From: a virus
Strand: one strand, 5' to 3'
Virus record (IMG/VR): IMGVR_UViG_3300033802_000183
Length of the DNA stretch: 44,948 nt
The notes beneath the pieces were generated by a model. That model had not been told where the DNA came from. It saw only the letters and a program-made list of their open reading frames with translations, and searched no databases. A program made the position numbers and the translations under genes. Position 1 is the stretch's first letter. Each line of letters starts with the position of its first letter. Positions 128 through 36,407 of this stretch are shown here, piece after piece.

Positions 128-139
128 ACAATTTCCCAC

Positions 140-6952: not shown

Positions 6953-7343
6953 ACGGATCACCAACCATTCCATCTGCAAAATCAATCCGCAATTTCAATT
7001 TCAGCGCGTGGATTTCTTCCTTCATGGCTTCAAATGCGTTCCTCCAGCGGTGCATCTTTTCATATGCTTCTGCTTCAAGTTGCCTTAGATCAATCACGGC
7101 CAGTTCTGCATGAGCTTCTCGCGGGCTTGGCGCATTGACATATGCTTCGGCGTACTTCCGTTTCCTTTCCGCATATATGCGCTTGTATTCGCCGTCTAAG
7201 AAGCTGGAAAGCCGACCGACAAACACAAGGCATTTTGCAAGAAGTTCAATCTTTTCCATGAGCGCATGAGGTACATCATCGGGAAGCTTATCGGCTTCCC
7301 TCCGCAGTCTCATGATCTCGGCAATGTGATGGTCAATGTTCAT
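6906..7343 (-). CDS. Hypothetical coiled-coil protein
   Basis: 145-aa ORF with a GGCGGTGA SD. Confidence 0.65.
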   Translation of the reverse strand: MNIDHHIAEIMRLRREADKLPDDVPHALMEKIELLAKCLVFVGRLSSFLDGEYKRIYAERKRKYAEAYVNAPSPREAHAELAVIDLRQLEAEAYEKMHRWRNAFEAMKEEIHALKLKLRIDFADGMVGDPYAPVQSGTKAKTQAV

Positions 7344-7355
7344 GTTTTCACCGCC

Positions 7356-7745
7356 TTAGAACGGGAGGTCTTCATCTGATATATCAAGCTGTTTTCCGTC
7401 GTCCTTGAATGGATCATCACTTTTGTTTGCTTTTTCAAGGAACTTCACGCTATCCGCGACAACCTCGGTGACATAAACTTTCCGGCCTTCGTTGTTTTCG
7501 TAGTTCCGAATTTGGATTCTGCCTTCGATTGCTGCCAAGCGGCCTTTGGCAAGGTATTTTGCCGCATTCTCCCCTAATTTCCCCCATGCAACAATCGGGA
7601 TGAAGTCCGTTTCCTTCTTGCCATTTTGATTGGAGAATTGTCTTTCCACAGCTAAGGTAAATGTCGCGACTCCTGTTCCCGACTGGCTGTATCGCAGTTC
7701 TGGATCGGCGGTAAGTCTTCCGATTAAGATAACCCTATTAAGCAT
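7356..7745 (-). CDS. ssb: Single-stranded DNA-binding protein
   Basis: [21 protein letters not shown]-fold signature and a C-terminal acidic tail DEDLPF. The ATG at 7745 follows AAAGGAG. Confidence 0.92.
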
Positions 7746-12728: not shown

Positions 12729-13724
12729 ATGAAAAAGAAAGTTTTAATCTTATCTGTTGCCCTCACTCTATTATTTTCCGGCGTTGTCGTTGCGGCGAGT
12801 ATGTACGGCGAATTTGAAGGTTATCCTATCATTCAGATCAAGAACAATGGAAAAACTATTATTCCTCAAGATGTTCCGGCAATCAGTTTTGAAGGAAGAA
12901 CGATGATTCCGATTTACATGCTGCGCGATCTTGGGTTAAATGTATCGTGGGATCAAGAAACACAAACTGTTAATGTAAGTTCTTCTACTCAAACCAGCAA
13001 TCCGGGGTACGTTTTCTCGAAAAAAGAATTTGATAAATTAATTTCAAAAGCAAGACAATATGACGCTAATTATATTCAGTACAGCTATGCAGGAGGAACA
13101 TCTACTTTTTTGGTTGCTAACTATAAAGATACATTAGATGATGATGTCGATGAAGATTTTAGAAATATAGCAGAAATATCCAAATTAACATTAGAGACGG
13201 ACGCTGGACTTATCATATTTGAAATAAATGTAAATGGCACAATTACAGAAGAAGTGTCTATTTTTAGAGAAGATATAGAAGATTATGTTAATGGTAAAAT
13301 CAATTATTCAGAATACATTCTAAAGTGGTCAATCTATCCTGCCAACAACATAGCACCTATTAATAACACTCCCAATTACAACAATTCATCTACTATGAAT
13401 ACATCATCAGGATACCCGGAACTATATTCAAATGATGGAAAAACGTATTTAGGAAAACTTACAACCAACGAATTTGACGCCGAATCTATTTTTAATGAGT
13501 ATGGTACATATGGAAGTCCTTACTCATCCAAAAGCATTTGGAATGAATACGGAAAATACGGAAGTAAATATTCTAATGAAAGTGCTTTTAATGAATATGC
13601 CACAAAGCCTCCTATTATTGTATTTGATGGAGAAATTATTGGTTATTTAACGACAAATGCTTATATTAATAGTGGCATTTCCCCCTATGAACTATATTCT
13701 TGGTTAGAAGAAAATGGGTATTAA
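12729..13724 (+). CDS. Secreted protein with a copper-amine-oxidase-N-terminal-like (stalk) domain and C-terminal NEYGxYGS repeats
   Basis: Signal peptide MKKKVLILSVALTLLFSGVVVAAS. Stalk motif FEGRTMIPIYMLRDLGLNVSWD. Repeats FNEYGTYGSPYS / WNEYGKYGSKYS / FNEYA. Confidence 0.75.
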   Translation: MKKKVLILSVALTLLFSGVVVAASMYGEFEGYPIIQIKNNGKTIIPQDVPAISFEGRTMIPIYMLRDLGLNVSWDQETQTVNVSSSTQTSNPGYVFSKKEFDKLISKARQYDANYIQYSYAGGTSTFLVANYKDTLDDDVDEDFRNIAEISKLTLETDAGLIIFEINVNGTITEEVSIFREDIEDYVNGKINYSEYILKWSIYPANNIAPINNTPNYNNSSTMNTSSGYPELYSNDGKTYLGKLTTNEFDAESIFNEYGTYGSPYSSKSIWNEYGKYGSKYSNESAFNEYATKPPIIVFDGEIIGYLTTNAYINSGISPYELYSWLEENGY

Positions 13725-13945
13725 TTATTAAAAATCGCCTTCCCATAGAGAAGACGACCATAGTGCAGCTGGCTGGCATAGAAAATCCTTAGCCCCTGTA
13801 GCTTTGCGTCCTCTCCTTTCGGAGAGTTTGCCAAAATATAGTATTTAAAGAGTGTATAAATAATAATAGGTTGATTTTACCAGAAATTCAAGGGCATATT
13901 TGCATGGGATAATTTTCATAATTTTTCGTCACCGGAGGACAAAAA

Positions 13946-15367
13946 ATGCGTGTAGCAATCTATATTCGGGTTAGTACAGATGAACAAGTTCAGCAAGGCT
14001 ACTCCATCGACGCTCAAAAAGAGCGTCTTATTGCGTTTTGCAAGTCCCAGGGATGGAATGACTATAGTCTCTACATAGACGATGGGTACACAGGCACAAA
14101 TTTAAACCGGCCTGCCATGAAAAGATTAATCCGTCATGCCGAAGAAAAAGAAATTGATTTGGTTCTCGTCTACAAACTGGACCGATTAGGACGGAAACAA
14201 AAAGATGTTCTTCATTTGCTTGAAGATGTGTTCGAGAAACACAACGTCGCCTTTAAATCCGCAACAGAGCCTTTTGACACGTCTACTCCACTTGGAAAAG
14301 CCATGATTGGGATATTAGCCGTATTTGCCCAATTGGAACGGGATATGATTGTTGAACGAACCACCACAGGACGGCGCCAAAAAGCCAGTCAAGGCATTTG
14401 GTACGGCGGCAGGATTCCTTTCGGGTATAATTGGAACCAACAAACGCAAACGCTTGAAATCGTGCCGGAAGAAGCTGCAATTGTAAAAGAAATATTCAAA
14501 CGGTATTTGCAAGGGCAGTCCAGGCTTGCGATTGCAGAATGGGCTTCCAGTCGGACAAAAGCGAGATTTTTTGATCATTGCGTAATCCGTGATATGCTCG
14601 CAAGACCCATATATATGGGAAAATTGGTGAATGCCGGAACTCTGGTTGAGGGAAAACACGAACCAATCATCGACGAAGAAACCTGGTATGCTGTTCAAAG
14701 GGAATACAGTCGGCGCAAAGACGGGTTATCACCACTAGGCGATTACTTGCTGACTGGATTATTAGAATGCGGCGTGTGCGGATCGGGGATCGTTCACGTC
14801 AAACGAATTACGCATAAGCGGAACAAAACATATCAGTACGATCTTTACGCTTGCAGAAATCAACATGTTCGGAGAAAGGATAGGAGTGATTATTGCGATT
14901 TAGGATATTTCCGCAGAGAAAAAATTGAGGAATGGGTTGTTGAGGAAATGAAATCCGTGGCACTAAAGCCTAAAAAAATCAATGAATTTATCAAACAAAA
15001 ATCCAGGCATACCGTAGATCAAAACCTTGTTTCCTCCCTCGAAACGAAACTAAAAGCCGTTGTAGAAGGCCTGGAAAATCTGTACGAAGCGATCCAAACA
15101 GGAGAGATCAAAGCATCATACGTCAGCGGTCGTATCAAAAAGTTGGAAGAAGAAAGGGAAGCTATTGAGCGGCAGTTGGAGGATTTGAAAGATGAAATGC
15201 CGAAAATTATAGAACCCAGGAATATGCTTTACCTCGTTCGCGAAGTGGCAGACGCATGGGACTTACTTACCGAAGACGAGCAAAAGATGATGATTCGCAA
15301 AGTTATTAAGAAAGTGATATTGAAAAAAGACGAAGATCCGGAAATTGTTTGGAACGTTGTTGAATAA
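13946..15367 (+). CDS. Large serine recombinase (integrase)
   Basis: MRVAIYIRVSTDEQ catalytic-Ser N-terminus, resolvase domain, recombinase domain, Cys-rich zinc ribbon (CGVCG...C) and a C-terminal coiled coil. Confidence 0.95.
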   Translation: MRVAIYIRVSTDEQVQQGYSIDAQKERLIAFCKSQGWNDYSLYIDDGYTGTNLNRPAMKRLIRHAEEKEIDLVLVYKLDRLGRKQKDVLHLLEDVFEKHNVAFKSATEPFDTSTPLGKAMIGILAVFAQLERDMIVERTTTGRRQKASQGIWYGGRIPFGYNWNQQTQTLEIVPEEAAIVKEIFKRYLQGQSRLAIAEWASSRTKARFFDHCVIRDMLARPIYMGKLVNAGTLVEGKHEPIIDEETWYAVQREYSRRKDGLSPLGDYLLTGLLECGVCGSGIVHVKRITHKRNKTYQYDLYACRNQHVRRKDRSDYCDLGYFRREKIEEWVVEEMKSVALKPKKINEFIKQKSRHTVDQNLVSSLETKLKAVVEGLENLYEAIQTGEIKASYVSGRIKKLEEEREAIERQLEDLKDEMPKIIEPRNMLYLVREVADAWDLLTEDEQKMMIRKVIKKVILKKDEDPEIVWNVVE

Positions 15368-15419: not shown

Positions 15420-15758
15420 TTATTTGAGTTCTACCTTTATTATGTCTTTAAAATTCACCCATTCCCATTCCTCACCAAATTCAACTTTAATCCGTTTCAA
15501 CTGCTGATCCACTTTCGTCACAACGCCGGTTAGCGTCCGATCCTCAAATTCCCCGTACAGGATGAAGCTGACCGGCTGTTTTGTGCCGTAGGAATAACCG
15601 ATCCCCCGCGCGATGTCTTCCTGTTCTTGCTCATCGAGTTCAGGCCGTGGCTTTTTTCGTGTTTCTTCCTGATACTTCAATAGCTCTGCTTTATGTTCAG
15701 GCAACATGATTCGGCTTGACTCCCAAAACATATTTGAACCCGGTGTGTTTTTGTGCAT
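15420..15758 (-). CDS. YolD-like protein
   Basis: MFWESSRIMLPEH ... RPELDEQEQEDI ... GVVTKVD matches the YolD-like pattern. The ATG at 15758 lies 7 nt after GGAGGGG. Confidence 0.75.
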   Translation of the reverse strand: MHKNTPGSNMFWESSRIMLPEHKAELLKYQEETRKKPRPELDEQEQEDIARGIGYSYGTKQPVSFILYGEFEDRTLTGVVTKVDQQLKRIKVEFGEEWEWVNFKDIIKVELK

Positions 15759-15772
15759 TCGCACCCCTCCTA

Positions 15773-17353: not shown

Positions 17354-17983
17354 TCATCCTTTCTTTTCTTGAATAAGTCCAAGCCTGTCCAATACGGTAA
17401 TGAACTCCGCACGGGTCAAAGCGTCGTTAGGCCGGGTTCCGTCTATAGCCTTTGCGTTTACGGCTTTTTCCCAGGATGCTTTGGCCCATGTGGGAACGTC
17501 GTCTTTTTCTTCTGTCATTGCTTCTCTCACATCCTTTTCAAACTGTGCGTGATCGAATAATGTATGATGCGGACAGTCTTTACCGTATACCACTTTATGC
17601 GGTTTCAGTTCGGTTAATCCAAGTTCTTTCATTAATCCGGAGATCACTCGGACAGCATTTTGATACGTTTCTTTATCCAGCGGTTGTCCGTATTTCACCC
17701 GGTTACAGCAGATTTCCACACCAATCCAGTTAGAGTTGTATTCTCCATTTCCATCCCCTGCGTGCCAGCCGATTTCGTCAAACGGAAGATGTTGTATCGC
17801 TTTCTTATGGTCCACAGTAACATGCCAACTCACTTCTCGGTCGGTGGTGACCAAATATCTCGCGTGCATTTCCGCATCGGCTGACGGATTCCAGTTTGCG
17901 GTGCAGTGATATAGAATGCCTTTGGGTTTCATTTTCCGTCCTGGACGGTTATGCCTTCCTAAAGGAATAGGCCATTGTTCCAT
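17354..17983 (-). CDS. N-acetylmuramoyl-L-alanine amidase (Amidase_2/PGRP type) endolysin with a C-terminal SLH-like domain
   Basis: YHCTANW ... SWHVTVD ... GWHAGDGNG ... IGVEIC zinc-amidase pattern. C-terminal WAKASWEKAVNAKAIDGTRPNDALTRAEFITVL resembles an SLH motif. Confidence 0.88.
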   Translation of the reverse strand: MEQWPIPLGRHNRPGRKMKPKGILYHCTANWNPSADAEMHARYLVTTDREVSWHVTVDHKKAIQHLPFDEIGWHAGDGNGEYNSNWIGVEICCNRVKYGQPLDKETYQNAVRVISGLMKELGLTELKPHKVVYGKDCPHHTLFDHAQFEKDVREAMTEEKDDVPTWAKASWEKAVNAKAIDGTRPNDALTRAEFITVLDRLGLIQEKKG

Positions 17984-18263: not shown

Positions 18264-21200
18264 TCATCTTCCCGACATTGGCACTCCGGCTTGTTCCATC
18301 AGTGTATTGATGTCCAGATAAATTTCGTTCATCCTGGCGCGAATATCACGCTGTAACTCTGCTCGTTCTGTTGCAGACAGTGATTTATCCGCACTGATTT
18401 GACGCTGAAGTTTTCCAAGATCAGAAAGAACCTTTGACGGTGCGCCTTTAGCTTGTGAAGTGACTAATTTGTACAAAACCGGATCGAACCATTCAGGCAA
18501 TGGCACTCCGGCGTTTTTGTTGTCGTTGTAAGCTCGGGTTAAGTTTTCTTTGGCGGTGTAGAAGTCGTCCGCTAATGTGTTTGTAAACACCGGGTCCGCG
18601 ATGAAGTTTCTTAAAATGGTTTCTCTCGGTCTTCCAGCTCCTACCTCAGAAGTCAAAGGCAACAATAACCTTGCCGGATCACCCCCATAAGCTCTTAACA
18701 AATAATCCACTTTCATCGGGGACATGTTTAAAATATTCCCGATTTGTATGGCAATGGCGCTGGTTCTTTCATCGTATTGATACCGCGGCGACATGTTTTG
18801 AAGTCTTTGCGGCACAATCGGCGCGCCCGTAAAGGATTGGTTCGTCATGATCGCCGCATAGGGAGCAAGGACACTCGCATTCGCCAATCCTGCAAGACTT
18901 TGTTCTACCCCGCCGCTTTGTGTAATTCCTTGTGCAGCACCGGATAAAAGTGGCGGCAAGAAAGCATTGGCCACAGCATCAGCGACGCCCTTAAAAGCGT
19001 CAGGGTCTTCGTCTTTATAGAAAGCCAGAATATCCTGCATAAACGCTCCAAAAGCGTTGTATTCAGGTGACATAGGAATCTTTACAAAGGTTCCGTCTTC
19101 GTTCTTGGCGATAAACAAATTCCGGTATCTTTCCCTTGCAGGTAGTTTTTGATAATCCGGATCGTCATGAAACATCATGTATTCAAGGAATTTCGGAACC
19201 ATGACAGCCCCGCCAACCATCGCAGTGGTTTTGATAGGATTGTTTTTAAACGCTTTGGCAAACCGGTACAATCCTTGAATCGCTGCGTTTTGGTAAGGGA
19301 TGAATTTTTCAATCATGTTGGCCTGGGAACCTCTTCGGCTCCAGTTGGCGGTGATTTCTCTTGCTTCCATTAATGCTTGTCTAATGGCTTCAGGACTCCG
19401 ATCCCCGCCTTGTCTTCTCATGGCTCCGCGAAAAGCGGCCATACGGTTGAGATTTTCCGATATATCCGCCAGTCCTTCCATCGCGCGGAACGGAAGGGTT
19501 AACGCTCTTCCTGCTGTTCGGGCGATGTTTTGCGGGGAAAGAATCGGATAGCGGTTCATCTCGCTTATACCGCGTCTTAAACGACGATCCCCGCGCAATG
19601 CCGCGGAATATTCTCCCCCAACTCTGCGGAAATCTTGGGCCAACTGGCGAAGTCTTTGCGTTCCTGGTGTGTTGGCCGGCAAACGGTCTGCAATGGTGCT
19701 AAATGTTGCATAGACCAAATCCCAAAGATGCTGTACCGGCGCTTTGGATTGAATTAAGGCTTGAACGGTATCCATCCCTATGCCTTTGATCGCAAACATG
19801 GGTGCGAGTGCTCCAGTTGCCCCTCTTTTGGTCAAATCCGACAAAAATCCGGCCATATCCAATATCAGATTGGATTGCTCCGCACCCATGCCAACAAGCG
19901 CTTTGACAGCTTCCGGGTCTTTTACTCGGATGTAAACCGGTTCGCCCCTGACCATCGCTCTTACGATGTTGTCATCGTCCAAGCGCGTGCGTTTAAAGAG
20001 TTTGTTAAAATCTTCATCCAGCATTTCCAAGAAATCTTCCGGCCCTTCTTCCAAAAGAATCTGTCGTAAGTTGGGTTGCCCTTTTTTCGGTTGAACGATT
20101 TCCGCAATGTCTTTCATGCCTTCCGGGTCTCTCAGAATATGATTGACAATCCCTTGCATTACGCGATTCCGCAAAGCTGCATTCACCCACGCACCCGTTG
20201 CTTCGATAGTTGATCTTCTCGGGTCAACGATCCTTCTTATGGAACCGGTCGGGCTGACTTCTTTGATCGGCGCTTTCTGTCCACTGAATGTTGCTCTCAC
20301 TCTTAGGCTCGTAGGACTCGCAAATTTTTCAGACGTAGAGAACTGTCTTCTCATTGGTGCATAGTTCGGATTTCGTTCACGTAACAACCGGTACAATTCC
20401 GGGGAGATTAGGCCTTCCTCCACGCCGTAAACTCTTAAAAGATTATCGTTATATTGGTCCCATTCCCTGGCGATATTGACGAAATTCGGATAACGCTGTT
20501 CATACATTTGAATCCGTTGTTGAACCTTCTCTGGCGTCATGTTCAAGCTTGGGTCGTAAACCCTTTCCCCGCGCTGCATTCTGGTTAGCGCGTGACGGAG
20601 TACGAGATAATCCGTAAATGCTTTTGATTCACCACGGCCCACTTTTCTAAAGATGTTCTGGAGTCCTTCGCCTACGACTTGCCCTTGTGGATTCACGAAC
20701 TTATCCCTAACTATGACGTTAGCGATATTGTTTGCTCTTGCTGCGTCAATGGCCTTATCGTATATTTCCCGGCTGATCCGTTTTAAAGGAGAAAGATAAT
20801 CGACAAAGTTTTGATAAACCGCTCTCGCTGTAGCCTGTGCGTTTTGTTTAAGACCTTGAATATCTTTTCTGAGCGGACTGCCAACAATCTGTTCCGATGT
20901 ATCCAGCAAGCCTTTCCTCACCCTACGAGTACTGCCAAATGGCGAAATTCCAACGCCGAAATTCCCGAATAGACGAGTAAACCAGTTTTGCCGTGTCGGC
21001 TGTGCGGATTCAACCGTTTGCGCCGTGACTGCCAATGGCGTTTCCCTTGCAGGTTGCGCAACTGTTGGTGTTTCTCTTGTTGTTTCTGCCCTCCTCACTA
21101 CAACGCGCGTTTCTGGCATAGCCACGGTTCCCGTGACTTGCGGTTCAGGCATTCTTCTTACATTTGGCCCAAGCCCAGCAATTTGCGCCATTCTGCCTCT

Positions 21201-22319
21201 CTGTAAAGCCCTGGGCGAAATCCTGCGGGAAGGATAAGCCAAATCAATCAGACGGTCCAAGCTCGGGTCTGTCGGTTCGGCCATCCGTGACCACAAGTCC
21301 TCCAACGCTTCTAATTCTCTGCCCGGCGGGAACTGCTGTCGATTCGCTTCTGCAATTAATCGTTCAAACTTCACCCGGTAAGGATTCGGGCCGGTTCTCG
21401 CGCGTGTTGGCTGAAAAGAAGGTTCAGGCAATGCTCTTGGTCCGGTTTCAGGAACATTTATCACTTCCGGCGTTTGCGCTGTGTTGACATTACCTCGCTG
21501 TCTCGGCGCTGGCAATGCCAAGACTTCTTGTTGAGATTGGGTCTGTTTTCGGTTCAGAAGTCTCTCTAAACCGCGTCTTACCCACGGAGCAGAAGCACTT
21601 ACCACTGCATCCCCGCCAGCAAATAACGCGGTCTCCAAGGCAACATTTCCCGCACGTTCAGCTAATGTTTGATCTTCGTCGCCCCTTGTATCCAAAGCAA
21701 CGTCAGCCAGCTCTTTTGCGCCGGAATAGGTTGCTCCTGCGGCCGCACCTCTCGCGGCAGTTTGAACGACTCTCGGCGCGTTTCGGGTTAAAGGCGTCGT
21801 TAAACCCCTTGTTAGCCGATAAGCCCCGGCAATCGGTACAGCTTCGCCGATAAACCTCCCGACCTTTCCTGCCGCAGATTGGGTTTCTTGTTGGGCCTGT
21901 CTTCCGCCTGGTAATAGAGCATTCGGAAGTTCCAAATATGCCGCGTTAATTGCTTGAATGGTCGCATCGGAAGTAGCCCCTACGATTCGATCTGCCAAAG
22001 AACGTGGCGTGCCTTCATACGGGCGATATTCTTCCACTTGCCTGCGCACGGACTCAGGCACTTGTGCGCGTCCGGTTCTTACATCCTCTACCGTGATTCT
22101 TTGGCTCGGCGGTGCGCCTAAACTGGTTGCGCCTGGAATCAAGGGTCTCGGCCTTGGTTCAGGTTCAGGCGTTTCAAAACTTCTTAACACATCGCTAGCC
22201 GAAAATGTTCTTAATGTTTGATATTTACTCCAATCCACGCTTGTGATGTTTTCTTTGCGGCGTTGTTCTTCGATAGGTTCTAACCCGTACTTTGACCAGT
22301 CAATAGGCATAATTTTCAC
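18264..22319 (-). CDS. Giant virion-associated protein (internal/ejection-protein-like, 1351 aa)
   Basis: This is the last structural gene before lysis. Its size is comparable to podovirus internal core proteins. It has a Pro/Arg-rich N-terminal third. No catalytic motif was recognised. Confidence 0.6.
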   Translation of the reverse strand: MKIMPIDWSKYGLEPIEEQRRKENITSVDWSKYQTLRTFSASDVLRSFETPEPEPRPRPLIPGATSLGAPPSQRITVEDVRTGRAQVPESVRRQVEEYRPYEGTPRSLADRIVGATSDATIQAINAAYLELPNALLPGGRQAQQETQSAAGKVGRFIGEAVPIAGAYRLTRGLTTPLTRNAPRVVQTAARGAAAGATYSGAKELADVALDTRGDEDQTLAERAGNVALETALFAGGDAVVSASAPWVRRGLERLLNRKQTQSQQEVLALPAPRQRGNVNTAQTPEVINVPETGPRALPEPSFQPTRARTGPNPYRVKFERLIAEANRQQFPPGRELEALEDLWSRMAEPTDPSLDRLIDLAYPSRRISPRALQRGRMAQIAGLGPNVRRMPEPQVTGTVAMPETRVVVRRAETTRETPTVAQPARETPLAVTAQTVESAQPTRQNWFTRLFGNFGVGISPFGSTRRVRKGLLDTSEQIVGSPLRKDIQGLKQNAQATARAVYQNFVDYLSPLKRISREIYDKAIDAARANNIANVIVRDKFVNPQGQVVGEGLQNIFRKVGRGESKAFTDYLVLRHALTRMQRGERVYDPSLNMTPEKVQQRIQMYEQRYPNFVNIAREWDQYNDNLLRVYGVEEGLISPELYRLLRERNPNYAPMRRQFSTSEKFASPTSLRVRATFSGQKAPIKEVSPTGSIRRIVDPRRSTIEATGAWVNAALRNRVMQGIVNHILRDPEGMKDIAEIVQPKKGQPNLRQILLEEGPEDFLEMLDEDFNKLFKRTRLDDDNIVRAMVRGEPVYIRVKDPEAVKALVGMGAEQSNLILDMAGFLSDLTKRGATGALAPMFAIKGIGMDTVQALIQSKAPVQHLWDLVYATFSTIADRLPANTPGTQRLRQLAQDFRRVGGEYSAALRGDRRLRRGISEMNRYPILSPQNIARTAGRALTLPFRAMEGLADISENLNRMAAFRGAMRRQGGDRSPEAIRQALMEAREITANWSRRGSQANMIEKFIPYQNAAIQGLYRFAKAFKNNPIKTTAMVGGAVMVPKFLEYMMFHDDPDYQKLPARERYRNLFIAKNEDGTFVKIPMSPEYNAFGAFMQDILAFYKDEDPDAFKGVADAVANAFLPPLLSGAAQGITQSGGVEQSLAGLANASVLAPYAAIMTNQSFTGAPIVPQRLQNMSPRYQYDERTSAIAIQIGNILNMSPMKVDYLLRAYGGDPARLLLPLTSEVGAGRPRETILRNFIADPVFTNTLADDFYTAKENLTRAYNDNKNAGVPLPEWFDPVLYKLVTSQAKGAPSKVLSDLGKLQRQISADKSLSATERAELQRDIRARMNEIYLDINTLMEQAGVPMSGR

Positions 22320-23629
22320 CTTCGATCTTGAAGCAGTTCATCAAGATAGTTTTGGTTGTTTAAATATAGGTCTGCAAGAAAACGATAACCGCTTGGTCCA
22401 ATATCTTTTATAATATTTTCTCGTTCTTCACGGAAAACTCTTTGAATCTCTTCAGGAGTCAATTGTTCCAATTGCGAAATATAGGCGGCGATTAGGTCAT
22501 TGGCGGTAGGTTCAGGTTCACCTTGTCTTGCAGCTACTGGATCAAATAAAGGAGTTCCCGGCGCTACTCCAGGTATCCCCGCAGGTGCGACACCTGTCAT
22601 TTCCCATTGACGATATAGATTATCTAATGCAGCTTGTCGTGCCAATCTGCCTTCCCTCGAATATTCTAGCCCGATCTGACTCTGACGCAATCTTAGTTCA
22701 TCTGCCATTGTTTTCGCTTGCAATGTCGGAGTACCGGCTGGAACACCAACAATTGCAGCTAAATCTTCAGGCACATAGCCAATCTTTTCAATTGTAGTCC
22801 AGGCATTGTCTAACAGTCTCTGTTGCTCCGCTGTCGTGGGTACTACGTTTCCGTTTTCGTCAACAATAGTTCCTGTTAACCTTGCTCTTTGTGCTTGTTC
22901 TTGCAAGCCGAACTGACGATCTGCTTGTCTGACTCCTTCTTGGAATTGACGGTATGCAAAAGCATCCTGCCAGTTTTGACGATTCATATCGCCCAACGTT
23001 CCGGCGAGACCCAAAATGGCTTGATTTTGCCGTTCTTGCGCTGCGCGTTGATCTAAATATTCCTGATACTTCTGATTAATCAATTCCGGCAACAACTGCG
23101 TATTGGCGATATTCGTGACGTTCTGTTGTTGCGCTAATGCGGCGGTTACGGCGGATTGCGAATTTCCTATGCCTCGCCTTCCCAAATTCACTAAAGCCTG
23201 GTTGGTGTTTCTTTCTGCGGATTGCTCGAGTTCTCTTAATCGGGCCTGATAACGCGGGTCTTGAGTGAGTTCTTCCACGTTATAGGTAAACGGTTGAATC
23301 GGTTGTGTAATATTCGTTCTGTACTGATTTAGTAGATCGAACTGCCCTTGACGCAAAAACTGGTCCATTTCACTACCTGCGTAGGAACCTTTATCTGTTC
23401 TCATTTTCGGCAGTGTGGAAGTTGTTGTTTGGCTTGTCGTTGGTTGAGAAGCAGGCCGATTTACGGAAACAAGTCTTGCAGTGAAATTTGGTTGATTAGG
23501 CTGGTTTTGCGGCCTTAAACTGGCCAAAATTTCATTGTATCGCTGCATATTCTTTGGGTCGGTAGGTTTAATCCCTGCCCGGGCCTTTCTCTGCAACTCT
23601 CGTTCAATTTGTTCAGGCGTCATTGCCAT
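22316..23629 (-). CDS. Virion-associated protein (437 aa, Gln-rich)
   Basis: ORF translationally coupled to the giant gene (ATGA-type overlap). Confidence 0.6.
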   Translation of the reverse strand: MAMTPEQIERELQRKARAGIKPTDPKNMQRYNEILASLRPQNQPNQPNFTARLVSVNRPASQPTTSQTTTSTLPKMRTDKGSYAGSEMDQFLRQGQFDLLNQYRTNITQPIQPFTYNVEELTQDPRYQARLRELEQSAERNTNQALVNLGRRGIGNSQSAVTAALAQQQNVTNIANTQLLPELINQKYQEYLDQRAAQERQNQAILGLAGTLGDMNRQNWQDAFAYRQFQEGVRQADRQFGLQEQAQRARLTGTIVDENGNVVPTTAEQQRLLDNAWTTIEKIGYVPEDLAAIVGVPAGTPTLQAKTMADELRLRQSQIGLEYSREGRLARQAALDNLYRQWEMTGVAPAGIPGVAPGTPLFDPVAARQGEPEPTANDLIAAYISQLEQLTPEEIQRVFREERENIIKDIGPSGYRFLADLYLNNQNYLDELLQDRR

Positions 23630-23633
23630 ACGA

Positions 23634-23825
23634 TCACCCCATTTCTTCTATGGCTTTGTAGGCTTTTCTGAGACCTTCCAGATTCGTTTTGGCTATCTCT
23701 GCCCCTTGTGTGTCTCCTGCAGCTTCACAGGCAACTAAGTCCATTTCCAGAGAATAGATTTTAACAAGGTATTCTTTCAGTCTGTTTTTCCTCAACTGCT
23801 CTTTTTCTTTTTCAGACAGTTCCAT
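23634..23825 (-). CDS. 63-aa coiled-coil protein
   Basis: Track ORF 23634..23984 trimmed to the ATG at 23825 after AAAAGGAGG. The discarded part is antisense to the toxin-like cassette. Confidence 0.6.
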   Translation of the reverse strand: MELSEKEKEQLRKNRLKEYLVKIYSLEMDLVACEAAGDTQGAEIAKTNLEGLRKAYKAIEEMG

Positions 23826-23854
23826 GACGGACCTCCTTTTAAGGCAAAATAAAA

Positions 23855-23870
23855 ACACCCCGAAGGGTGT
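23855..23870 (-). terminator. ACACCC-N4-GGGTGT hairpin + U-tract (copy 1 of 3)
   Basis: The minus strand reads ACACCC-TTCG-GGGTGT followed by TTTTTATTTT. Confidence 0.65.
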
Positions 23871-23873
23871 ATA

Positions 23874-23882
23874 TGGTATAAT
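23874..23882 (+). promoter_or_regulatory. Extended -10 promoter element TGgTATAAT
   Basis: Perfect TATAAT at 23877-23882 with TG at 23874-23875. No good -35. Confidence 0.55.
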
Positions 23883-23940
23883 ATGGTTGTACAACCGCTT
23901 GTGGTGGGTAAGGCGAACCTCCAGAAAGGAGGGGATGCCT

Positions 23941-24021
23941 ATGGACATTTCGTTCGGCGAATTAATAGCGTTCGGAATATTCATTCTGGCGCTGTTAACT
24001 TACATCGAAAAACGAAAGTAA
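23941..24021 (+). CDS. 26-aa hydrophobic peptide resembling type I / holin-like toxins
   Basis: MDISFGELIAFGIFILALLTYIEKRK. GGAGG SD 8 nt upstream. Single TM helix plus a KRK tail. Own promoter and terminator. Confidence 0.6.
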   Translation: MDISFGELIAFGIFILALLTYIEKRK

Positions 24022-24097
24022 CCCACCGCTAGTCAGGCCGTGTGGGTTACTTCGCAAGGACAAATCTTAGGAGGTTACCCGCCCAAGAGTTGTACAG

Positions 24098-24126
24098 GAG
24101 AGGTATTGGCCGTACCTCTCTGTTTT
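24098..24126 (+). terminator. Rho-independent terminator of the toxin-like cassette
   Basis: GAGAGGTA-ttggccg-TACCTCTC followed by TGTTTT. Confidence 0.7.
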
Positions 24127-24178
24127 AGTTTACGCTTGATTTACTTTTATGATACCATGAAACGTTGGATTTGTCATG

Positions 24179-24724
24179 TTATTGTTGGGACTCAAGTTGT
24201 TGTTTAAGCTGCTCCAATTCTTCCAATTGATTTTCAAGTTCGGCTTTTTCTTCATTCCAAGTATCAATGAATTGTTGTTGAGTAGAATTAGCGTTTTTAA
24301 TTAAGTAATCAACTAATTGGATACGCATTTTAACAACATTAATTTCTTCGTTAACGCTTTCTAAAGAGGGAAGTTTTTCTTCCATAGGCCCTTCACCAAC
24401 TTCTTTTTGTTCATCTTTTGGTTGCGGTTCTGTCTGCACTGTTTCAATTTCTTCCGGAATGTTTGGCTCTGATTGATTTAATTCAATCGTGCGTGTATCC
24501 GCTTTGTACGTTACATCGTAACCAAGCAAATTTCCTATTTCCCTAAGCGGGATATAGGTTGTTCCTTGATAAACCAGCGGATCGGATTGAAGTTGCTTAT
24601 ATTCTCCATTCACTATGATGTTAAATTTTGAAATGGTAGCTTCAATCGTTTCGCTTTGAGCAGCAACGATGCTGACCGAACCAATTATTAAACCTAGCAT
24701 AAGTGCTAGAATTATTTTTTTCAT
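24179..24724 (-). CDS. Secreted protein with a stalk (copper-amine-oxidase-N-like) domain and an acidic coiled-coil tail; moron inside the tail module
   Basis: Signal peptide MKKIILALMLGLIIGSVSIVAAQS. YQGTTYIPLREIGNLLGYDVTY matches the stalk motif of 12729..13724. Confidence 0.75.
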   Translation of the reverse strand: MKKIILALMLGLIIGSVSIVAAQSETIEATISKFNIIVNGEYKQLQSDPLVYQGTTYIPLREIGNLLGYDVTYKADTRTIELNQSEPNIPEEIETVQTEPQPKDEQKEVGEGPMEEKLPSLESVNEEINVVKMRIQLVDYLIKNANSTQQQFIDTWNEEKAELENQLEELEQLKQQLESQQ

Positions 24725-28333: not shown

Positions 28334-28903
28334 TTACCACCCCGATTCGGACATGATGGTTTTGACTTCCGGCGTGAAAGGATAGACTAAAGCGAGTTCT
28401 TCTTCCAACTGCTCATAATCCATTCTGAACTGCGCAGCCAAATCGAATTTTTGAACCGTTTCAGCTAAATGTTTGGCAAGTCCATAAACAAAAATGTCGT
28501 GATAATCCCCGTCTAAAGAAGGCGTTTGGCCAACACTGGTAAGGGATTCAGGGGATTCATACGCGTAAACGGTTAACGTTCCATCCGCTTTGGCTGCCGG
28601 ATAAATGCCTAGCAGAGTATCAAAAAAGAAATGATACCGGCTGGCGTCTGTCGTGGTTCCGATCAGTTTTTTGTTTGGATAAGACTCTCCATCCACCAAT
28701 ACGTCAAAGATTTTTGACGGAATAATACCCACGTCAATAAAAGACTGCCCTTCTAAAATCTCATAGTTGAACGCCGTGGGAATCTTATATTTCCTGTAAA
28801 GTCTCTTTTGAATGTTGTCGATAATCTTAATTTGCACTGTCACGTCTTCGTTGTTGGGGACTTTCAACTTTGCCCGATCGATAATCTCTTGTACCGTATA
28901 CAT
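28334..28903 (-). CDS. Head-tail adaptor/connector-like protein
   Basis: 189 aa. Called from its position after the capsid cluster. Confidence 0.5.
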   Translation of the reverse strand: MYTVQEIIDRAKLKVPNNEDVTVQIKIIDNIQKRLYRKYKIPTAFNYEILEGQSFIDVGIIPSKIFDVLVDGESYPNKKLIGTTTDASRYHFFFDTLLGIYPAAKADGTLTVYAYESPESLTSVGQTPSLDGDYHDIFVYGLAKHLAETVQKFDLAAQFRMDYEQLEEELALVYPFTPEVKTIMSESGW

Positions 28904-29698: not shown

Positions 29699-30718
29699 TT
29701 AGATGGACAACACAGTGCCTAAACCAGGATCGACTTTACAAATGGCTCGCCAGTTGTTGGGTGCGGCTCCGTAACGGGCACGGCCTTTAAACACGTTGTT
29801 GTCGGTGTTTTCGTCGATGTAAGACTTCACCGTGAGCGGAACCCGTTCCAGCCACACCAACCCGGCGTAATATTCGTTAAATTTGGAGTCCATCAGATAC
29901 CATGTGTCCGTTCCGGGAGTGATTCCAGGAGTGTTTTGCAGATACGGGCTCATGATGACGTTCCAGCGGCCATATTGGATGTTAAACGAATGGTTTGCAG
30001 TTCCCGGCGCACCGTCTTCGGCCCCGATAGCGTCAAAGACTAGTTTCTTGATCCGTGCGTTCGACGGAATAATGATGGTATCCGGCATGATGTTCAAGAT
30101 ATTCCCATCATCGTCCGTGAATTTCTGCATGGCTTCTTCCACGCGGCACAGTGCGTCATAAGAAAATTCATTGCCGAAGTAGTTCGACTGCACTCCGGTA
30201 TTTCCGGTTTTGGACGGATGGTCTGTTGCAAAAAGAGGTTTTCCGTCTGCAGCCGAAATGTCGAACACACGGTTGTTTTTGCCAAATGTCATCGTTGTAG
30301 AAGAGCCGTTGTTTAAGATCGCGGCAGCGAGTTTTTCCCGTCCGCGGTTATACGAGAGCGTAAATTGCCCGGCTCTCTGCTTCACTTTCCCCATTTTGGC
30401 GTCTTCGATCATCGTCAAAGTGACTTCAAACGAGTTTTTCCACTCTTCCGGTTCAATAACTTTGCTGTATCCTTCCTGGAACGAGTTCCGGGGATACGCT
30501 CCGCCTTCGCCCACAGCTTCAAAGTCTCCCAAGGACGTTTCATAGCTGTATTTTTCTGCGAAATTATTGGTTTCGTCTTTGTAGAACACGTTGTCAATGA
30601 TCGAATATTGTTGGAACGCTTCAATTTGCTGTTCGATGAACAGTTTAATCGGTTCTTGAGACTTGCCGAATACGCTGTCGTTTAATCCCGATGCTTTGTT
30701 AAACACTATTCCTGCCAT
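29699..30718 (-). CDS. Major capsid protein
   Basis: 339 aa, downstream of the scaffold gene, with typical size and position. The family was not resolved. Confidence 0.75.
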   Translation of the reverse strand: MAGIVFNKASGLNDSVFGKSQEPIKLFIEQQIEAFQQYSIIDNVFYKDETNNFAEKYSYETSLGDFEAVGEGGAYPRNSFQEGYSKVIEPEEWKNSFEVTLTMIEDAKMGKVKQRAGQFTLSYNRGREKLAAAILNNGSSTTMTFGKNNRVFDISAADGKPLFATDHPSKTGNTGVQSNYFGNEFSYDALCRVEEAMQKFTDDDGNILNIMPDTIIIPSNARIKKLVFDAIGAEDGAPGTANHSFNIQYGRWNVIMSPYLQNTPGITPGTDTWYLMDSKFNEYYAGLVWLERVPLTVKSYIDENTDNNVFKGRARYGAAPNNWRAICKVDPGLGTVLSI

Positions 30719-32376: not shown

Positions 32377-32568
32377 TTAAAATACTCGCGGACCGGCGCA
32401 ATACCACAGTCCATTTTGCGAACGAAACATAATCGGGCGTCCACACTCGCAACAAGTGACTTCATCCGATGTTTTCAGACCTTCCTCGCTCACGTATTGC
32501 TTCGTTCCACAGCATTCATAAACCGTGAAAAACGTGACCAGGTTCCTTTCGGTAAGTTTGACCTTCAT
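32377..32568 (-). CDS. Small Cys-rich (Zn-ribbon-like) protein
   Basis: 63 aa with CC...CCEC...C, coupled to the portal gene stop. Confidence 0.55.
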
Positions 32569-34523
32569 CCGCCCACACTCCGCATGATTTCCGCCTGAGC
32601 TTCCGGCGGGAGTTGGTTAAACATGTCTTGTGTTTGCGGGTCTAATTGGCTGAATTGCTGGTTGAACGTTGGTTTTGGTTGTTGCATCTGTTGCGTCTGC
32701 TGCTGTAACATAGCCTGTTGCCTTTGTTCCTCTAACTGTTTCCGAATCTGCTTGGCTTGCGGGAAATTGATCGACTCCATGATCATCCAGAACTGCGGCA
32801 GATCGATCGCACCGGCGGACAGCATTTCTTTCGCTTGGTTGAAGATGAAAATCTTGTCTTTTGGCAAGCCTTGTCCGCTGTCTGCGCTAAAAATAAAGTC
32901 GGTGTTGTAATAGAGTTCTCCTGTTGCGTCGCGAACAAGGAATTTGTATTTGTCGAACACCTGAAACATGTCGTTTCCGTCCGCATCTTTCGCAACATAC
33001 GGACGAACTTCGTCATAAAAGGCAAGTTTGAACTCAAACATGATTTCAAACAGTTCTTTGTACGCGGCGAATTTGTTTGCGATAACAGATTGAAGCCTGC
33101 CAGAAGCCTGGGCGACTTGAATTTGCTTCGCTATGCCGCTTTTTGCTGTGGGATCTTCTTTCCCCTGATAAGCGTCGGTAATGCCTAACATGGATTGAGC
33201 GACTTCGTATTGTTGCTCGATGAAAGCCAAATCCTTCGTTATATCCGCATAAAGGTCTTTCACGTCAAAAATATTTTTCTGTGCTGCGTTCATGCGGATG
33301 ATCTGGTAAGTTTGGTCAGTGATGTCCACGTTCAAATCATCCGGCACGGTGATGATGGAACCGCCTTTGACTAGCTTTTCTTCCATCTTCGTGACGACTT
33401 TTTTGATGCTGTCTTGTTGATCACGGATGATGTCAATGTCCGATTGGCCTTCAAACGCAAAGTTTTTCGGCACGTTCTTTCGTATCACGAACGGATACCG
33501 CGTCGGGCAGAAGTATGGCACTTTTTTGCCTGCTGGCAAAATCTCATTCTCTCCCGTCAACGGGTCTATGGATCCGATTTTCACTGGCTCAAGCAAGGTT
33601 TCTTCTTTTTCGATGGTTGTTTTGAAACGTTTGGAACCGCACACGGCGCAATAATCAAGCGTTTTGTCTCGCACTTCGCCGCATTCCGCACATCTTTCCA
33701 AACGTCTGTAGAAGAATTTCGGCAAGTCCTCTACGACATGATCATTTACCCATGAAAATTTTCCAATGTCCCCGTCTTCGTCCCGGTACCAGCGCGTAAT
33801 CAGCGTGACTTTTTCGCTTAGTTCGTTGGTTCTGCCGTGGATGGTGTCATACAGGCTTGTAACCTCCGGGTACTGTTCTTCCTCGTTTGACACGTCAATA
33901 CCGAATTTCTGCTTCACATACTCTTTTGTGACGGACGTGAGGATGAAGAAATAGTCCATTTTTTGCAGCTTGTACACGCCCGGTTGCGGAATCAACTGTT
34001 TCGGATGACGGCAAATCAGTTCAATTTCCCCGCGATATAGACGGTGTTTATAATTCGGATTCCAGGCGACTTCGATGATCGAAAATCCTTGTATGGCGGT
34101 GATTCTTTCGTTATAGTCGTTGATTTCTTCAATGCCAAGTTCGGGCAAATCGCTTGCAATGCTGTCCTCAATCATGTTGGCTTGTTCCGTGAATTCTGGT
34201 CTTTTGCTTCTGACAGACGGCTGCGGAATGGTTGTATCAACTTTGGTTTCGATAAACTCAAAGCAGATGTTGTAGACGTTGTTTGCGTATTTGGACGGCA
34301 ACTGCTTCTGATTTACATTTGGATCTACAGCCCGCGTACCAAGGTATAGATATTCGCGCTGATCCATGATGTCCAGGTTGTACTGTGCTTTGGCCTGCTC
34401 CAGTTGTTTTTTGTAACGGTGCAGTTTGTCCATCTGCTCTACGTCTTTTTCTGCTTTTTTCACTTGGTCCGCCACGTTTTTCACCGCCTGTCTCATGATT
34501 TTGAAAGGTTTGGTTAGGTCCAA
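32565..34523 (-). CDS. Portal protein with an inserted CxxC-N13-CxxC zinc ribbon
   Basis: 652 aa, downstream of TerL with typical size and a Gln-rich C-terminal tail. CAECGEVRDKTLDYCAVCG is at 33639-33692. Confidence 0.8.
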   Translation of the reverse strand: MDLTKPFKIMRQAVKNVADQVKKAEKDVEQMDKLHRYKKQLEQAKAQYNLDIMDQREYLYLGTRAVDPNVNQKQLPSKYANNVYNICFEFIETKVDTTIPQPSVRSKRPEFTEQANMIEDSIASDLPELGIEEINDYNERITAIQGFSIIEVAWNPNYKHRLYRGEIELICRHPKQLIPQPGVYKLQKMDYFFILTSVTKEYVKQKFGIDVSNEEEQYPEVTSLYDTIHGRTNELSEKVTLITRWYRDEDGDIGKFSWVNDHVVEDLPKFFYRRLERCAECGEVRDKTLDYCAVCGSKRFKTTIEKEETLLEPVKIGSIDPLTGENEILPAGKKVPYFCPTRYPFVIRKNVPKNFAFEGQSDIDIIRDQQDSIKKVVTKMEEKLVKGGSIITVPDDLNVDITDQTYQIIRMNAAQKNIFDVKDLYADITKDLAFIEQQYEVAQSMLGITDAYQGKEDPTAKSGIAKQIQVAQASGRLQSVIANKFAAYKELFEIMFEFKLAFYDEVRPYVAKDADGNDMFQVFDKYKFLVRDATGELYYNTDFIFSADSGQGLPKDKIFIFNQAKEMLSAGAIDLPQFWMIMESINFPQAKQIRKQLEEQRQQAMLQQQTQQMQQPKPTFNQQFSQLDPQTQDMFNQLPPEAQAEIMRSVGG

Positions 34524-34895: not shown

Positions 34896-36407
34896 TCAAA
34901 CCCCTTTCACCAGTCCCCATTTTTTGAGCAAATACGGCCTTAATTCAGCCGGCGCGTTCCAATAGTCTTCTTGGTAGTCTTCCGGCAGTTTCGACAAATC
35001 AAAACTCTGTTCAGCTTTCACGGTCATGCTCTGCTGATCCCGGATGAAATACGTGATCGCCAGCCCCATAATCAAATCGTCATGCGCTCCCTCTTGAGCT
35101 TCCGGCTTGCCGTTTTCGTTTTTCACGAAAGTAAGCATTTCTTCTAGCGTCTTGATATCGTTAATCAAGTGGACCGATTCCTTCACAATCGCAACCAAAT
35201 TCGATATGATGAGCGGACGCGTGATTTTCCCCGTTTGGAAACCGAAGCTTTGCCGCAACTTGTGCGTGTAGCTGTCCTGGACTTCGCGCACATAAAGCTT
35301 CGGGTAGCCCCATTCTTCCAGCTTCCGCGTGGGATACGTGGAAAAATTGGTTTCCAAGCCGATCAGAGCGGTGTTGTAATAGACACCCAAACAATAGATT
35401 TGCTTTGCATAGTCGATTTCGTCATATTGCTGATGTAACACAGCAACTTGTTTTCCTGTCGTGTTGTCGATGACATGTCCCGAAAACCAATCGGATCCCT
35501 CACCAGCTGTATCGCCGCCTAACACGTATGGGTAACACTCTTTCACGTCCTCAAACAGCGTAATTGCCCCGTTATCGTCTTCTACAAAGCGGATAGTACC
35601 CTCTATCGGCTTGCCGCCTTCTGTCTCTTCAAACGAAAAATAGCCCCGTTTCAGAGGCTGTTTGTCACGTAGATATGCAATTCGGTTTGATACGATTTCC
35701 GCCGGGAATATGGTTTTTCCAAGCACACCCCATTCGCCTAAGGCGTAGACCTGGTAAAAATATGGGTCCGTGTCTTTGAATCCTTCAAGTACCTTTTTTT
35801 GTTCGTCATCAAGGAACCTATTGTCCTTGTACGTGCTGTGCATCGTTGTGGCGTTTTCTTTCTGTTGATCGAAGAATTCTTTTTTCAGCCAGTGGTTTAT
35901 ATCGACCGGGTTAAATGTGATGATCATTTGTTTGTAGTTGGCTGATTTCCCGCGCAAACGAATATCAAGCTGTCTAAAGTCTTCCGGCGTGATTTCGCTG
36001 GCTTCTTCAATCCATATGCCTGTCACGCCAGAAATGGATTTCAGCTTTTCCACATCATCCAACCCGGCGAACAATATTTCGTTTCCGTTTGCGCACTTGA
36101 TATGAAGATCGCCCTTGTGTATTTTGAAAAGTTGCCCTAATCCCCAGCGATGAATGACGTTGCTTAGCTCTGCATATACCGATTCCCGCAGCGTTTTTGC
36201 GACTTTCCGGAGCACCAGAAAACGATGCCCTTTTTCGCTCAGCATCCGCAAAATGATCTTTTGCGCGGCGAAAACGGATTTCCCCGAACCACCGCCCCCG
36301 ACAAGCACCAAATAGCGGTCTTGGTTCCAGTAGAGCGGGTAAAATTTTTCATTCGTCAGTTTCGGCAGTTCGGTCAGGTCAACCTTCACCGTCGGCATCT
36401 GTATCAC
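34896..36407 (-). CDS. terL: Terminase large subunit (PBSX/Terminase_3-like)
   Basis: Walker A LVGGGGSGKS. C-terminal nuclease acidic residues GGDTAGEGSDW ... HDD. Confidence 0.92.
   Translation of the reverse strand: MIQMPTVKVDLTELPKLTNEKFYPLYWNQDRYLVLVGGGGSGKSVFAAQKIILRMLSEKGHRFLVLRKVAKTLRESVYAELSNVIHRWGLGQLFKIHKGDLHIKCANGNEILFAGLDDVEKLKSISGVTGIWIEEASEITPEDFRQLDIRLRGKSANYKQMIITFNPVDINHWLKKEFFDQQKENATTMHSTYKDNRFLDDEQKKVLEGFKDTDPYFYQVYALGEWGVLGKTIFPAEIVSNRIAYLRDKQPLKRGYFSFEETEGGKPIEGTIRFVEDDNGAITLFEDVKECYPYVLGGDTAGEGSDWFSGHVIDNTTGKQVAVLHQQYDEIDYAKQIYCLGVYYNTALIGLETNFSTYPTRKLEEWGYPKLYVREVQDSYTHKLRQSFGFQTGKITRPLIISNLVAIVKESVHLINDIKTLEEMLTFVKNENGKPEAQEGAHDDLIMGLAITYFIRDQQSMTVKAEQSFDLSKLPEDYQEDYWNAPAELRPYLLKKWGLVKGV

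Follow-up and report, generated by a model that had tools for sequence, protein, structure and literature searches.

The virus record IMGVR_UViG_3300033802_000183 of IMG/VR was analysed over its whole length of 44,948 nucleotides (referred to here as the window), and the element under study is a small plus-strand cassette near positions 23,855-24,126 that encodes a hydrophobic peptide of 26 residues. We found that this cassette is very probably a type I toxin-antitoxin module of the bsrG/SR4 type, which a temperate, podovirus-like phage with a Paenibacillaceae-type host carries as a moron. Judged from its sequence, the peptide is a previously unannotated member of the TxpA/BsrG ("holin-like toxin") family. 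Family membership and coding-type conservation were observed for the peptide, and the RNA helices and the promoter and terminator motifs on both strands were observed to be conserved. An initial annotation of this region had described a complete plus-strand cassette between two minus-strand virion genes, and all the elements that it listed were found in place.

The putative toxin peptide and its predicted transcript

The toxin open reading frame (ORF) is located at 23,941-24,021 on the plus strand (ATG at 23,941, TAA at 24,019-24,021) and encodes MDISFGELIAFGIFILALLTYIEKRK, a peptide with one transmembrane helix and a basic tail, as had been read before. It matches the Pfam family Hol_Tox (PF16935) with 27.0 bits (E 4.2e-6), over the gathering score of 23.3 bits, so that the profile search proposed in the initial annotation gave a positive result; the 27-residue phrog_9488 is also matched (E 1e-6). 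BsrG and TxpA scored 34.5 and 31.3 bits with the same Hol_Tox model, both over the threshold, where the BsrG query was 100% identical to the protein encoded by SPbeta. Since the match is shared with BsrG and TxpA, and since members of the TxpA family are those annotated as "holin-like toxins" (Fozo et al. 2010, PMC2887945), the window peptide is placed in the TxpA/BsrG family. By our estimate, the Hol_Tox match alone would still stand at about 1e-3 when corrected for the small ORFs of a 45-kb window, which number several hundred (91 ORFs of at least 20 residues occur in 6 kb). As an example of a characterized member, EF3263 of E. faecalis is toxic and its 3' untranslated region (UTR) is covered by an antisense RNA of ~110 nucleotides (PMC2887945).

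Coding-type conservation was observed in the relatives that resemble the window cassette most closely (subfamily B, described below). Over a 14-codon core in 23 distinct family-B sequences, the mean pairwise differences at codon positions 1, 2 and 3 are 0.31, 0.06 and 0.55 respectively, and the ALLTY core is invariant, yet it is spelt by many synonymous codons. This pattern indicates purifying selection on the ORF at the protein level, and the comparative sequence data make the family assignment secure. The earlier proposal of a Firmicute holin-like or type I toxin peptide is thus supported by the Pfam membership, by the comparison of 22 homologues and by the match to the structurally probed bsrG mRNA.

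The cassette might also be an antisense-regulated module in which the peptide is not an addiction toxin but a membrane modulator, such as a ComI-like inhibitor of competence or DNA uptake, a superinfection-exclusion factor or an abortive-infection factor. Phage morons typically encode functions that benefit the lysogen, and the best NCBIfam match of the window peptide is to ComI (24.8 bits, E 1.4e-5), although this score is far under the equivalog cutoff of 55 bits. YhzE-2, a small peptide that is paired with and regulated by an antisense RNA and is non-toxic, provides a precedent (PMC2887945). However, no PADLOC-DB defense-system model matched the peptide at E values up to 1, in its entire RNA architecture the module corresponds to bsrG, which is toxic, and translational locking as heavy as that seen in the predicted mRNA would be expected for a harmful product. 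We consider a modulator to be unlikely and favor the type I toxin.

An extended -10 element, TGGTATAAT, is found at 23,874-23,882 on the plus strand, where the initial annotation had placed it; no -35 hexamer is recognisable, and transcription is predicted to start at ~23,889. A TGnTAnnnT box was observed 43-48 nucleotides upstream of the Shine-Dalgarno (SD) sequence in 21 of 25 distinct family-B cassettes. When 22 family-B cassettes were aligned with MAFFT, positions T9, G10, A16 and T17 of the -10 region were at least 90% conserved while T12 and A13 were invariant. The strong terminator that had been noted after the ORF was located by the terminator scan and in the minimum free energy (MFE) structure at 24,097-24,131 on the plus strand, with a 10-bp stem (24,097-24,121) and the U-rich tail GTTTTAGTTT. 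With its ends taken from this promoter and terminator, the predicted toxin mRNA is ~243 nucleotides long (23,889-24,131, plus strand). The 243-nucleotide RNA has an MFE of -99.7 kcal/mol (z -6.44), and none of 200 shuffled sequences was as stable.

The two ends of the predicted mRNA are joined in a long 5'-3' helix that is equivalent to P1 of bsrG. The 5' strand is composed of GUACAAC, CUUG and GGUGGGUA (23,889-23,910) and the 3' strand of UACCCGCC, CAAG and GUUGUAC (24,076-24,095); in the MFE structure residues 23,889-95 pair with 24,089-95, 23,898-901 with 24,084-87 and 23,903-10 with 24,076-83. Pairing between the ends had been suggested from the segment GGAGGTTACCCGCC, which is present at 24,070-24,083, and the pairing found here is longer than was noted (23,889-23,910 with 24,076-24,095). 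The initial annotation had also pointed to the palindrome GGTTGTACAACC at 23,885-23,896. This palindrome is present, but it is not conserved as such and seems to be incidental: only its right half, GTACAAC, is conserved, and once transcribed this half forms the 5' strand of the long helix by pairing with GTTGTAC at 24,089-24,095. The toxin terminator begins one unpaired nucleotide past the long helix.

The SD sequence GGAGG (23,928-23,932) and the bases just before the AUG are sequestered in a two-part hairpin, stem-loop 1 (SL1; 23,911-23,940, plus strand), where AGGCG pairs with UGCCU and CCUCC with GGAGG in the MFE structure. The CCTCC-AGAAA-GGAGG sequence at 23,918-23,932 had been interpreted as a hairpin that sequesters the SD, and the predicted fold agrees with this. 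In the thermodynamic model the mean probability that an SD nucleotide is unpaired is 0.02, so that the SD is ~98% paired, and a (C)CUCC anti-SD stretch was observed just upstream of the SD in family-B homologues. Furthermore, GTAACCCAC and GTGGGTTAC form the 9-bp hairpin that had been reported at the stop codon (24,018-24,050), which is SL3-like in the toxin mRNA. Its pairing is kept across the 22 homologues, where 97% of the cells are paired and two pairs show compensatory change.

The initial annotation had proposed that the leader hairpins be examined in relatives, and both RNAalifold and pair counts on the alignment of 22 cassettes were found to support the helices. RNAalifold independently recovers the long 5'-3' helix and the stop-codon hairpin. 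Because the alignment misaligns the SD hairpin and the terminator, the counts were limited to 19 pairs in well-aligned columns; 96.6% of the cells are paired at these positions as compared with 27-42% when the partners are slid. Compensatory change was observed in 6 pairs against 2.6 +/- 1.0 in shuffles, and the covariation score is above all 500 shuffles. For example, one pair of the long helix is UA in eight homologues, CG in seven and UG in seven. Duplexes between the leader and the 3' UTR range from -27 to -47 kcal/mol and were predicted in 22/22 homologues. The search pattern with which the relatives were collected had fixed GGAGGNNNTGCCTATG and AARTRACCC, and these bases were not counted as evidence because their conservation reflects ascertainment.

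The predicted convergent antisense RNA

A promoter for the antitoxin is predicted on the minus strand at 24,149-24,177, directly past the stop codon of the upstream virion gene. It is composed of the -35 hexamer ATGACA (24,177-24,172), a 17-nucleotide spacer and the extended -10 element TGGTATCAT (24,157-24,149); the promoter scan gave 10/12 consensus matches plus the TG, with 5/6 matches in the -35 hexamer. Of 26 family-B cassettes, 20 have an antisense TGnTAnnnT box 104-127 nucleotides past the stop codon; the chance expectation over such an interval is estimated to be ~0.1 per sequence, and MAFFT also aligned this box. The other subfamilies carry an antisense extended -10 at a fixed place as well, which is mostly TGGTATAAT with TGTACA at -35 in family C and TGCTATATT with TTGCAA in family A.

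The antitoxin RNA predicted from this promoter is ~135 nucleotides long (24,007-24,142, minus strand, with inferred ends) and is complementary to the 3' UTR, the terminator and the stop-codon region of the toxin mRNA. When 138 nucleotides were folded, the RNA gave -49.9 kcal/mol (z -4.5) and three stem-loops, the last of which is the terminator hairpin with its U-run. On the minus strand, the stop-codon hairpin in reverse complement, with UUUCGUUUUUCG after it, makes up the predicted antitoxin terminator, and this U-run is encoded by the EKRK codons of the toxin. According to the initial annotation, every minus-strand transcript that crosses the region could act as the antitoxin. The antisense idea is retained, but a dedicated small RNA (sRNA) gene is preferred to virion-strand transcripts in general, because the antisense promoter and terminator are conserved and are arranged as in bsrG/SR4. 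The antitoxin is therefore most likely a convergent sRNA with its own predicted promoter and terminator, while read-through from the virion operon would add antisense RNA during lytic growth only.

In addition, the terminator scan located a second minus-strand terminator at 23,845-23,870 (ACACCCTTCGGGGTGT with TTTTATTTT; hairpin 23,870-23,855 and a T-run), which borders directly on the toxin promoter and shortly precedes the SD of the next minus-strand gene, of 63 residues. An equivalent antisense-strand terminator was found in 12 of 25 distinct family-B cassettes, chromosomal ones included, and in none of families A and C. This element might serve as an insulator that stops read-through from the antitoxin gene. 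In the phage, both minus-strand terminators would exert polarity on the distal virion genes if late transcription were not terminator-resistant.

The promoter-like site at 24,177-24,149 and the terminator at 23,870-23,855, immediately before the SD of the next virion gene, could also be viewed as a minus-strand attenuator leader for the distal virion genes in which the plus-strand ORF is incidental. We find this highly improbable: the ORF is conserved in the manner of a coding sequence and has a Pfam match, the plus strand has a conserved promoter and terminator of its own, many cassette loci occur without these virion genes, and no cis-regulatory family of Rfam was matched.

We infer the following course for the module, in which the two RNAs with their predicted ends, the role of RNase III, the toxicity and the biological role are taken over by analogy from characterized homologues. 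The extended -10 promoter on the plus strand would produce the ~243-nucleotide mRNA for the peptide, which would be locked in a rod-like form with its 5' end paired just before the terminator, its SD in a hairpin and its stop codon in a third hairpin. The convergent promoter, ~11 nucleotides beyond the toxin terminator, would give rise to the ~135-nucleotide sRNA, with the stop-codon hairpin in reverse complement at its end. By analogy with SR4 and RatA, this sRNA would first contact the toxin mRNA loop-to-loop at the stop-codon hairpin and then pair along the whole 3' UTR, and the pairing would lead to decay initiated by RNase III. Stripping the 3' strand from the long helix may also tighten the sequestration of the SD. 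If the labile antitoxin were lost, for example together with the prophage, the peptide would be made and the membrane or envelope damaged. Loss of the element would thus be penalized.

Several observations weigh against a bsrG/SR4-type toxin module. The ends of the plus- and minus-strand transcripts are all predicted from the DNA, the promoter scan of the window did not call the plus-strand toxin promoter, as it has no recognisable -35 hexamer, and the terminator scan did not call the antitoxin terminator, which has a 15-nucleotide loop and an interrupted U-run. At gathering thresholds, Rfam returned only a c-di-GMP-I riboswitch for the whole window and no toxin or antitoxin RNA family, and a search of 23,700-24,300 at E values up to 10 gave two noise matches only. 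Much of the support for the helices is sequence conservation and not covariation. Cognate duplexes between leader and 3' UTR have a modest advantage only (-34.6 kcal/mol, against -30.5 for non-cognate ones), and these energies discriminate poorly, as the sequence of the helix arms is conserved. The Hol_Tox match spans residues 8-23 only, the peptide of 26 residues is shorter than BsrG (38) and TxpA (59), and the YhzE-2 precedent counts here as well. Finally, the modelled accessibility of the SD changed little when the 3' part was blocked (0.023 against 0.008); it is already very low, so that a translational effect of the antitoxin is not supported by the model. An SR4-like tightening of SD sequestration was accordingly not reproduced by the thermodynamic model with the 3' part blocked.

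Related cassettes and the phage context

Relatives of the cassette were found with a single DNA pattern built from shared leader and stop motifs, which gave 44 loci from metagenomes and 41 from genomes. Intact peptides of 24-29 residues are encoded by 76 extracted cassettes and form three subfamilies, and the ~80 related cassettes are found in metagenomes and in genomes of Paenibacillaceae, Bacillaceae and Phascolarctobacterium. Subfamily B (...LALLTY.KRK), which is window-like, occurs in Paenibacillus, Cohnella, Fontibacillus and Longirhabdus, and subfamily C (MD..ALSLMISFGMLVAFIMS..KK) in Virgibacillus and other Bacillaceae. Subfamily A (MKNYDFKDLMAFGVFILALLTFIFQFSK) occurs in the human gut and in Phascolarctobacterium. 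The cassettes of subfamily A (~20 loci in L021-L061, together with L066, L071, L077 and L094) are near-identical across human-gut assemblies and metagenome-assembled genomes of Phascolarctobacterium (Negativicutes); their peptide has a single terminal lysine and no basic tail, and its 18.4 bits are under the Pfam cutoff.

The peptide nearest to that of the window, MHISFGEVIAFGLFILALLTYIENRK, is found in Longirhabdus pacifica, where scaffold NZ_QXJP01000016.1 carries four window-like copies, three of them within 2.7 kb. These copies are located at L088 (~4860-7610) and L097 (~1585-1875). At L088 one copy has its antisense promoter directly adjoining the toxin promoter of the following copy, and the copy at 4864-5154 has a different leader without a promoter. 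A cassette of Ureibacillus sp. (L100, ~6720-6819, plus strand) encodes MTVYESLMFAVAFAALIVSILSSNHKK, which begins with MTVYESLM exactly as BsrG does, and has the leader GGAGGnnnTGCCTATG as in the window. The window family is linked directly to BsrG by this cassette, because the first eight residues of BsrG are combined with a window-type leader.

The window was identified as a temperate, podovirus-like phage or prophage from its encoded genes. These include a large terminase (34,896-36,407), a P22-like portal (32,565-34,523), a capsid protein (29,699-30,718), an SU10-type adaptor (28,334-28,903) and, in the virion module on the minus strand, a 1351-residue protein with an LPD38 domain (18,264-22,319; 136.6 bits). 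A serine recombinase is encoded on the plus strand (13,946-15,367) and adjoins a YolD-like protein on the minus strand (15,420-15,764; 84.7 bits). The cassette occupies the gap between the minus-strand genes 24,179-24,724 and 23,634-23,825. The upstream gene belongs to the virion module and encodes 181 residues with a Cu_amine_oxidN1 domain (Pfam, 41.6 bits); the downstream gene encodes 63 residues behind the SD AAGGAGG and is followed by a 437-residue gene (22,316-23,629). A family search with the 63-residue protein gave no match.

Distant homologues of the 437-residue neighbor (33-50% identity) were found on phage-like contigs. Two of these contigs, L009 and L020, also have the Cu_amine_oxidN1 gene and carry a cassette at the same intergenic site, between this gene and the homologue of the 437-residue gene and on the other strand from the virion genes; L009 and L020 encode the peptides MEPSTILIMLAFGMFILALLTYIEKRK and MKFSLSEVVMLGMFLLALLTYLKRK respectively. 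In L017 and L010 the junction is ~55 bp long and holds no cassette. The cassette therefore behaves as a moron. At the same site L018 (3324-4001) has an 89-residue gene on the opposite strand instead of the cassette, and L019 (3358-4001) has small same-strand ORFs; this varied cargo suggests that the interval between the Cu_amine_oxidN1 gene and the 437-residue-gene homologue is an insertion hotspot for morons. The peptides of the three phage copies (window, L009 and L020) are each nearest to a different chromosomal sub-lineage, which hints at repeated capture at one intergenic hotspot.

Other searches for relatives returned little. A blastn search of the 800-bp region against the phage collection gave no match, and neither did tblastn of the 26-residue peptide against the phage and plasmid collections, probably owing to the low-complexity filter and the short length of the query. 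No identical protein was found for the 437-residue neighbor, and the near-identical contig L008 ends short of the cassette. A scan of viral contigs returned domain-level relatives only with the Cu_amine_oxidN1 neighbor and no match with the 437-residue neighbor. Two DNA patterns run on viral contigs gave one 3' remnant, in L011, and otherwise chance matches.

The remnant in L011 (IMG/VR UViG_2648501253_000004, ~5900-6000, minus strand) consists of ...FLLALLTYIEKRK, the stop codon and the hairpin; it lies directly after an unrelated terminator and has neither SD nor start codon, which indicates that such modules decay in phage genomes. Decayed copies were also found at L032 (~96-189, plus strand), which has a premature stop after MKFSLS, at L074 (~6743, plus strand), which has a deletion or frameshift near the C-terminus, and at L064 (~932, plus strand), which is frameshifted; all three keep the flanking RNA elements. 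The window copy might likewise be a relic of a type I module that is no longer expressed or toxic. We consider this very unlikely, since both promoter boxes, the SD, the ORF, the helices and the terminators are all intact in the window.

The single transmembrane helix, the basic tail and the family name "holin-like" could also suggest that the peptide is a holin or antiholin of the phage's own lysis system. However, the Amidase_2 endolysin of the window lies 6 kb away on the minus strand (17,354-17,983), whereas the peptide gene is antisense to the late operon and has its own promoter and terminator. Furthermore, the cassette is common in bacterial chromosomes and tandem arrays, outside this phage gene context, and is absent from the related phages L017 and L010. 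A function in lysis thus has very little probability as compared with that of an antisense-regulated toxin.

It is conceivable, though on the whole improbable, that the backward placement in the virion operon is functional and couples the module to the phage cycle as a switch. Insulation from the silent late genes would be provided in the lysogen by the antitoxin promoter, which would be constitutive, and by both minus-strand terminators. On induction, late transcription would read through both terminators and flood the cell with RNA antisense to the toxin. If so, the lysogen would be subject to prophage addiction or gain abortive infection through the module, which would fall silent automatically once the phage itself grows lytically, and the terminators would form a checkpoint, so that the distal virion genes would depend on antitermination.

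A c-di-GMP-I riboswitch aptamer was observed elsewhere in the window, at 13,761-13,842 on the minus strand (Rfam RF01051, 69.7 bits, E 9.6e-12). It lies between a second gene with a Cu_amine_oxidN1 domain (12,729-13,724, plus strand), which encodes 331 residues, and the serine recombinase gene. The promoter-like sequence TTGAAT...TGGTAAAAT is present upstream of the aptamer on the minus strand; downstream there are ORFs of at most 37 residues only, and a transcript would extend in antisense into the 331-residue gene from its 3' end. The riboswitch is either an orphan or the controller of an antisense transcript on the phage.

Read in this way, the cassette is a complete bsrG/SR4-type module that had gone unannotated in a temperate phage of the Paenibacillaceae type. 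Such short genes are missed by gene callers, and type I modules are therefore under-counted in phage genomes. The ~80 sister cassettes, from Paenibacillaceae, Bacillaceae and human-gut Phascolarctobacterium, extend the known range of the family, and an RNA family model of toxin mRNA and antitoxin could be built from them directly.

Comparison with characterized systems

The closest comparison is with bsrG/SR4 of the Bacillus phage SPbeta (Jahn & Brantl 2013, PMC3834814), whose toxin falls in the same Pfam family as the window peptide. Probing of the bsrG mRNA has shown that nucleotides 1-35 at the 5' end pair with nucleotides 232-262 at the 3' end to form helix P1, that the SD is in a 4-bp region of SL1, that the stop codon is in the 5' part of SL3 and that one nucleotide separates P1 from the terminator (PMC3834814). 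The predicted window mRNA follows this common plan of a long 5'-3' helix, an SD within SL1, a stop codon within a hairpin and a terminator one nucleotide further on, and the SPbeta bsrG region folded with the same tool gave the same plan. In both RNAs the two strands of the long helix also carry UGUACA at its base (TGTACA...TGTACAG in SPbeta), and both modules are located in prophages. Aligning the nucleotide sequences of the window, SPbeta bsrG and the Ureibacillus cassette together with MAFFT was uninformative, and the comparison therefore rests on architecture and short motifs.

SR4 and the predicted window antitoxin are both convergent to the toxin gene and overlap its 3' UTR, and the terminator of each is the complement of the stop-codon hairpin with a U-run derived from Lys codons (Lys/Arg in the window). 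The terminator loop of SR4 is the site of first contact with loop 3 of bsrG (PMC3834814, PMC6562991). Differences were also observed. The window peptide has 26 residues as compared with 38 in BsrG, and the C-terminal halves differ. The anti-SD helix of the window, with 5+5 bp, is longer than the 4 bp of bsrG, while the antitoxin is predicted to be shorter (~135 nucleotides with a non-overlapping 5' end of ~11, against 183 with ~60 in SR4). In addition, about half of the window-like cassettes have the extra antisense-strand terminator upstream of the toxin promoter, and the window cassette sits antisense inside a virion module.

The toxins of txpA/RatA (skin element of B. subtilis) and of the EF3263 locus of E. 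faecalis belong to the same family, and their antitoxins also overlap the 3' end of the toxin gene. TxpA, with 59 residues, is longer than the window peptide, RatA is longer than the window antitoxin, and no sequence similarity of the RNAs to the window was detected with Rfam. RatA acts through RNase III-dependent decay only (PMC6562991). ComI, the competence inhibitor of pBS32 (NCBIfam NF052249), is a single-transmembrane peptide of 30 residues from the same superfamily, and its match covers residues 9-25 of the window peptide. In hok/Sok and aapA1/IsoA1 of Gram-negative bacteria, pairing of the 5' and 3' ends keeps the full-length toxin mRNA translationally inert. This principle of end pairing is shared with the window mRNA, but the toxins are unrelated and no homology is claimed; in these systems the antitoxin targets the 5' region and activation occurs by 3' processing, unlike what is proposed for the window. 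The inhibition of type I toxin mRNAs by folding back is also treated in PMC5416894.

Prophage-borne type I modules are well documented, in SPbeta, in the skin element, in phiCD630-1 and in an S. aureus prophage. The module of the window is a new example of a known system with no new mechanism, and it is modestly unusual in its conserved insertion antisense to a virion operon, in its extra terminator and in the breadth of the unannotated family to which it belongs.

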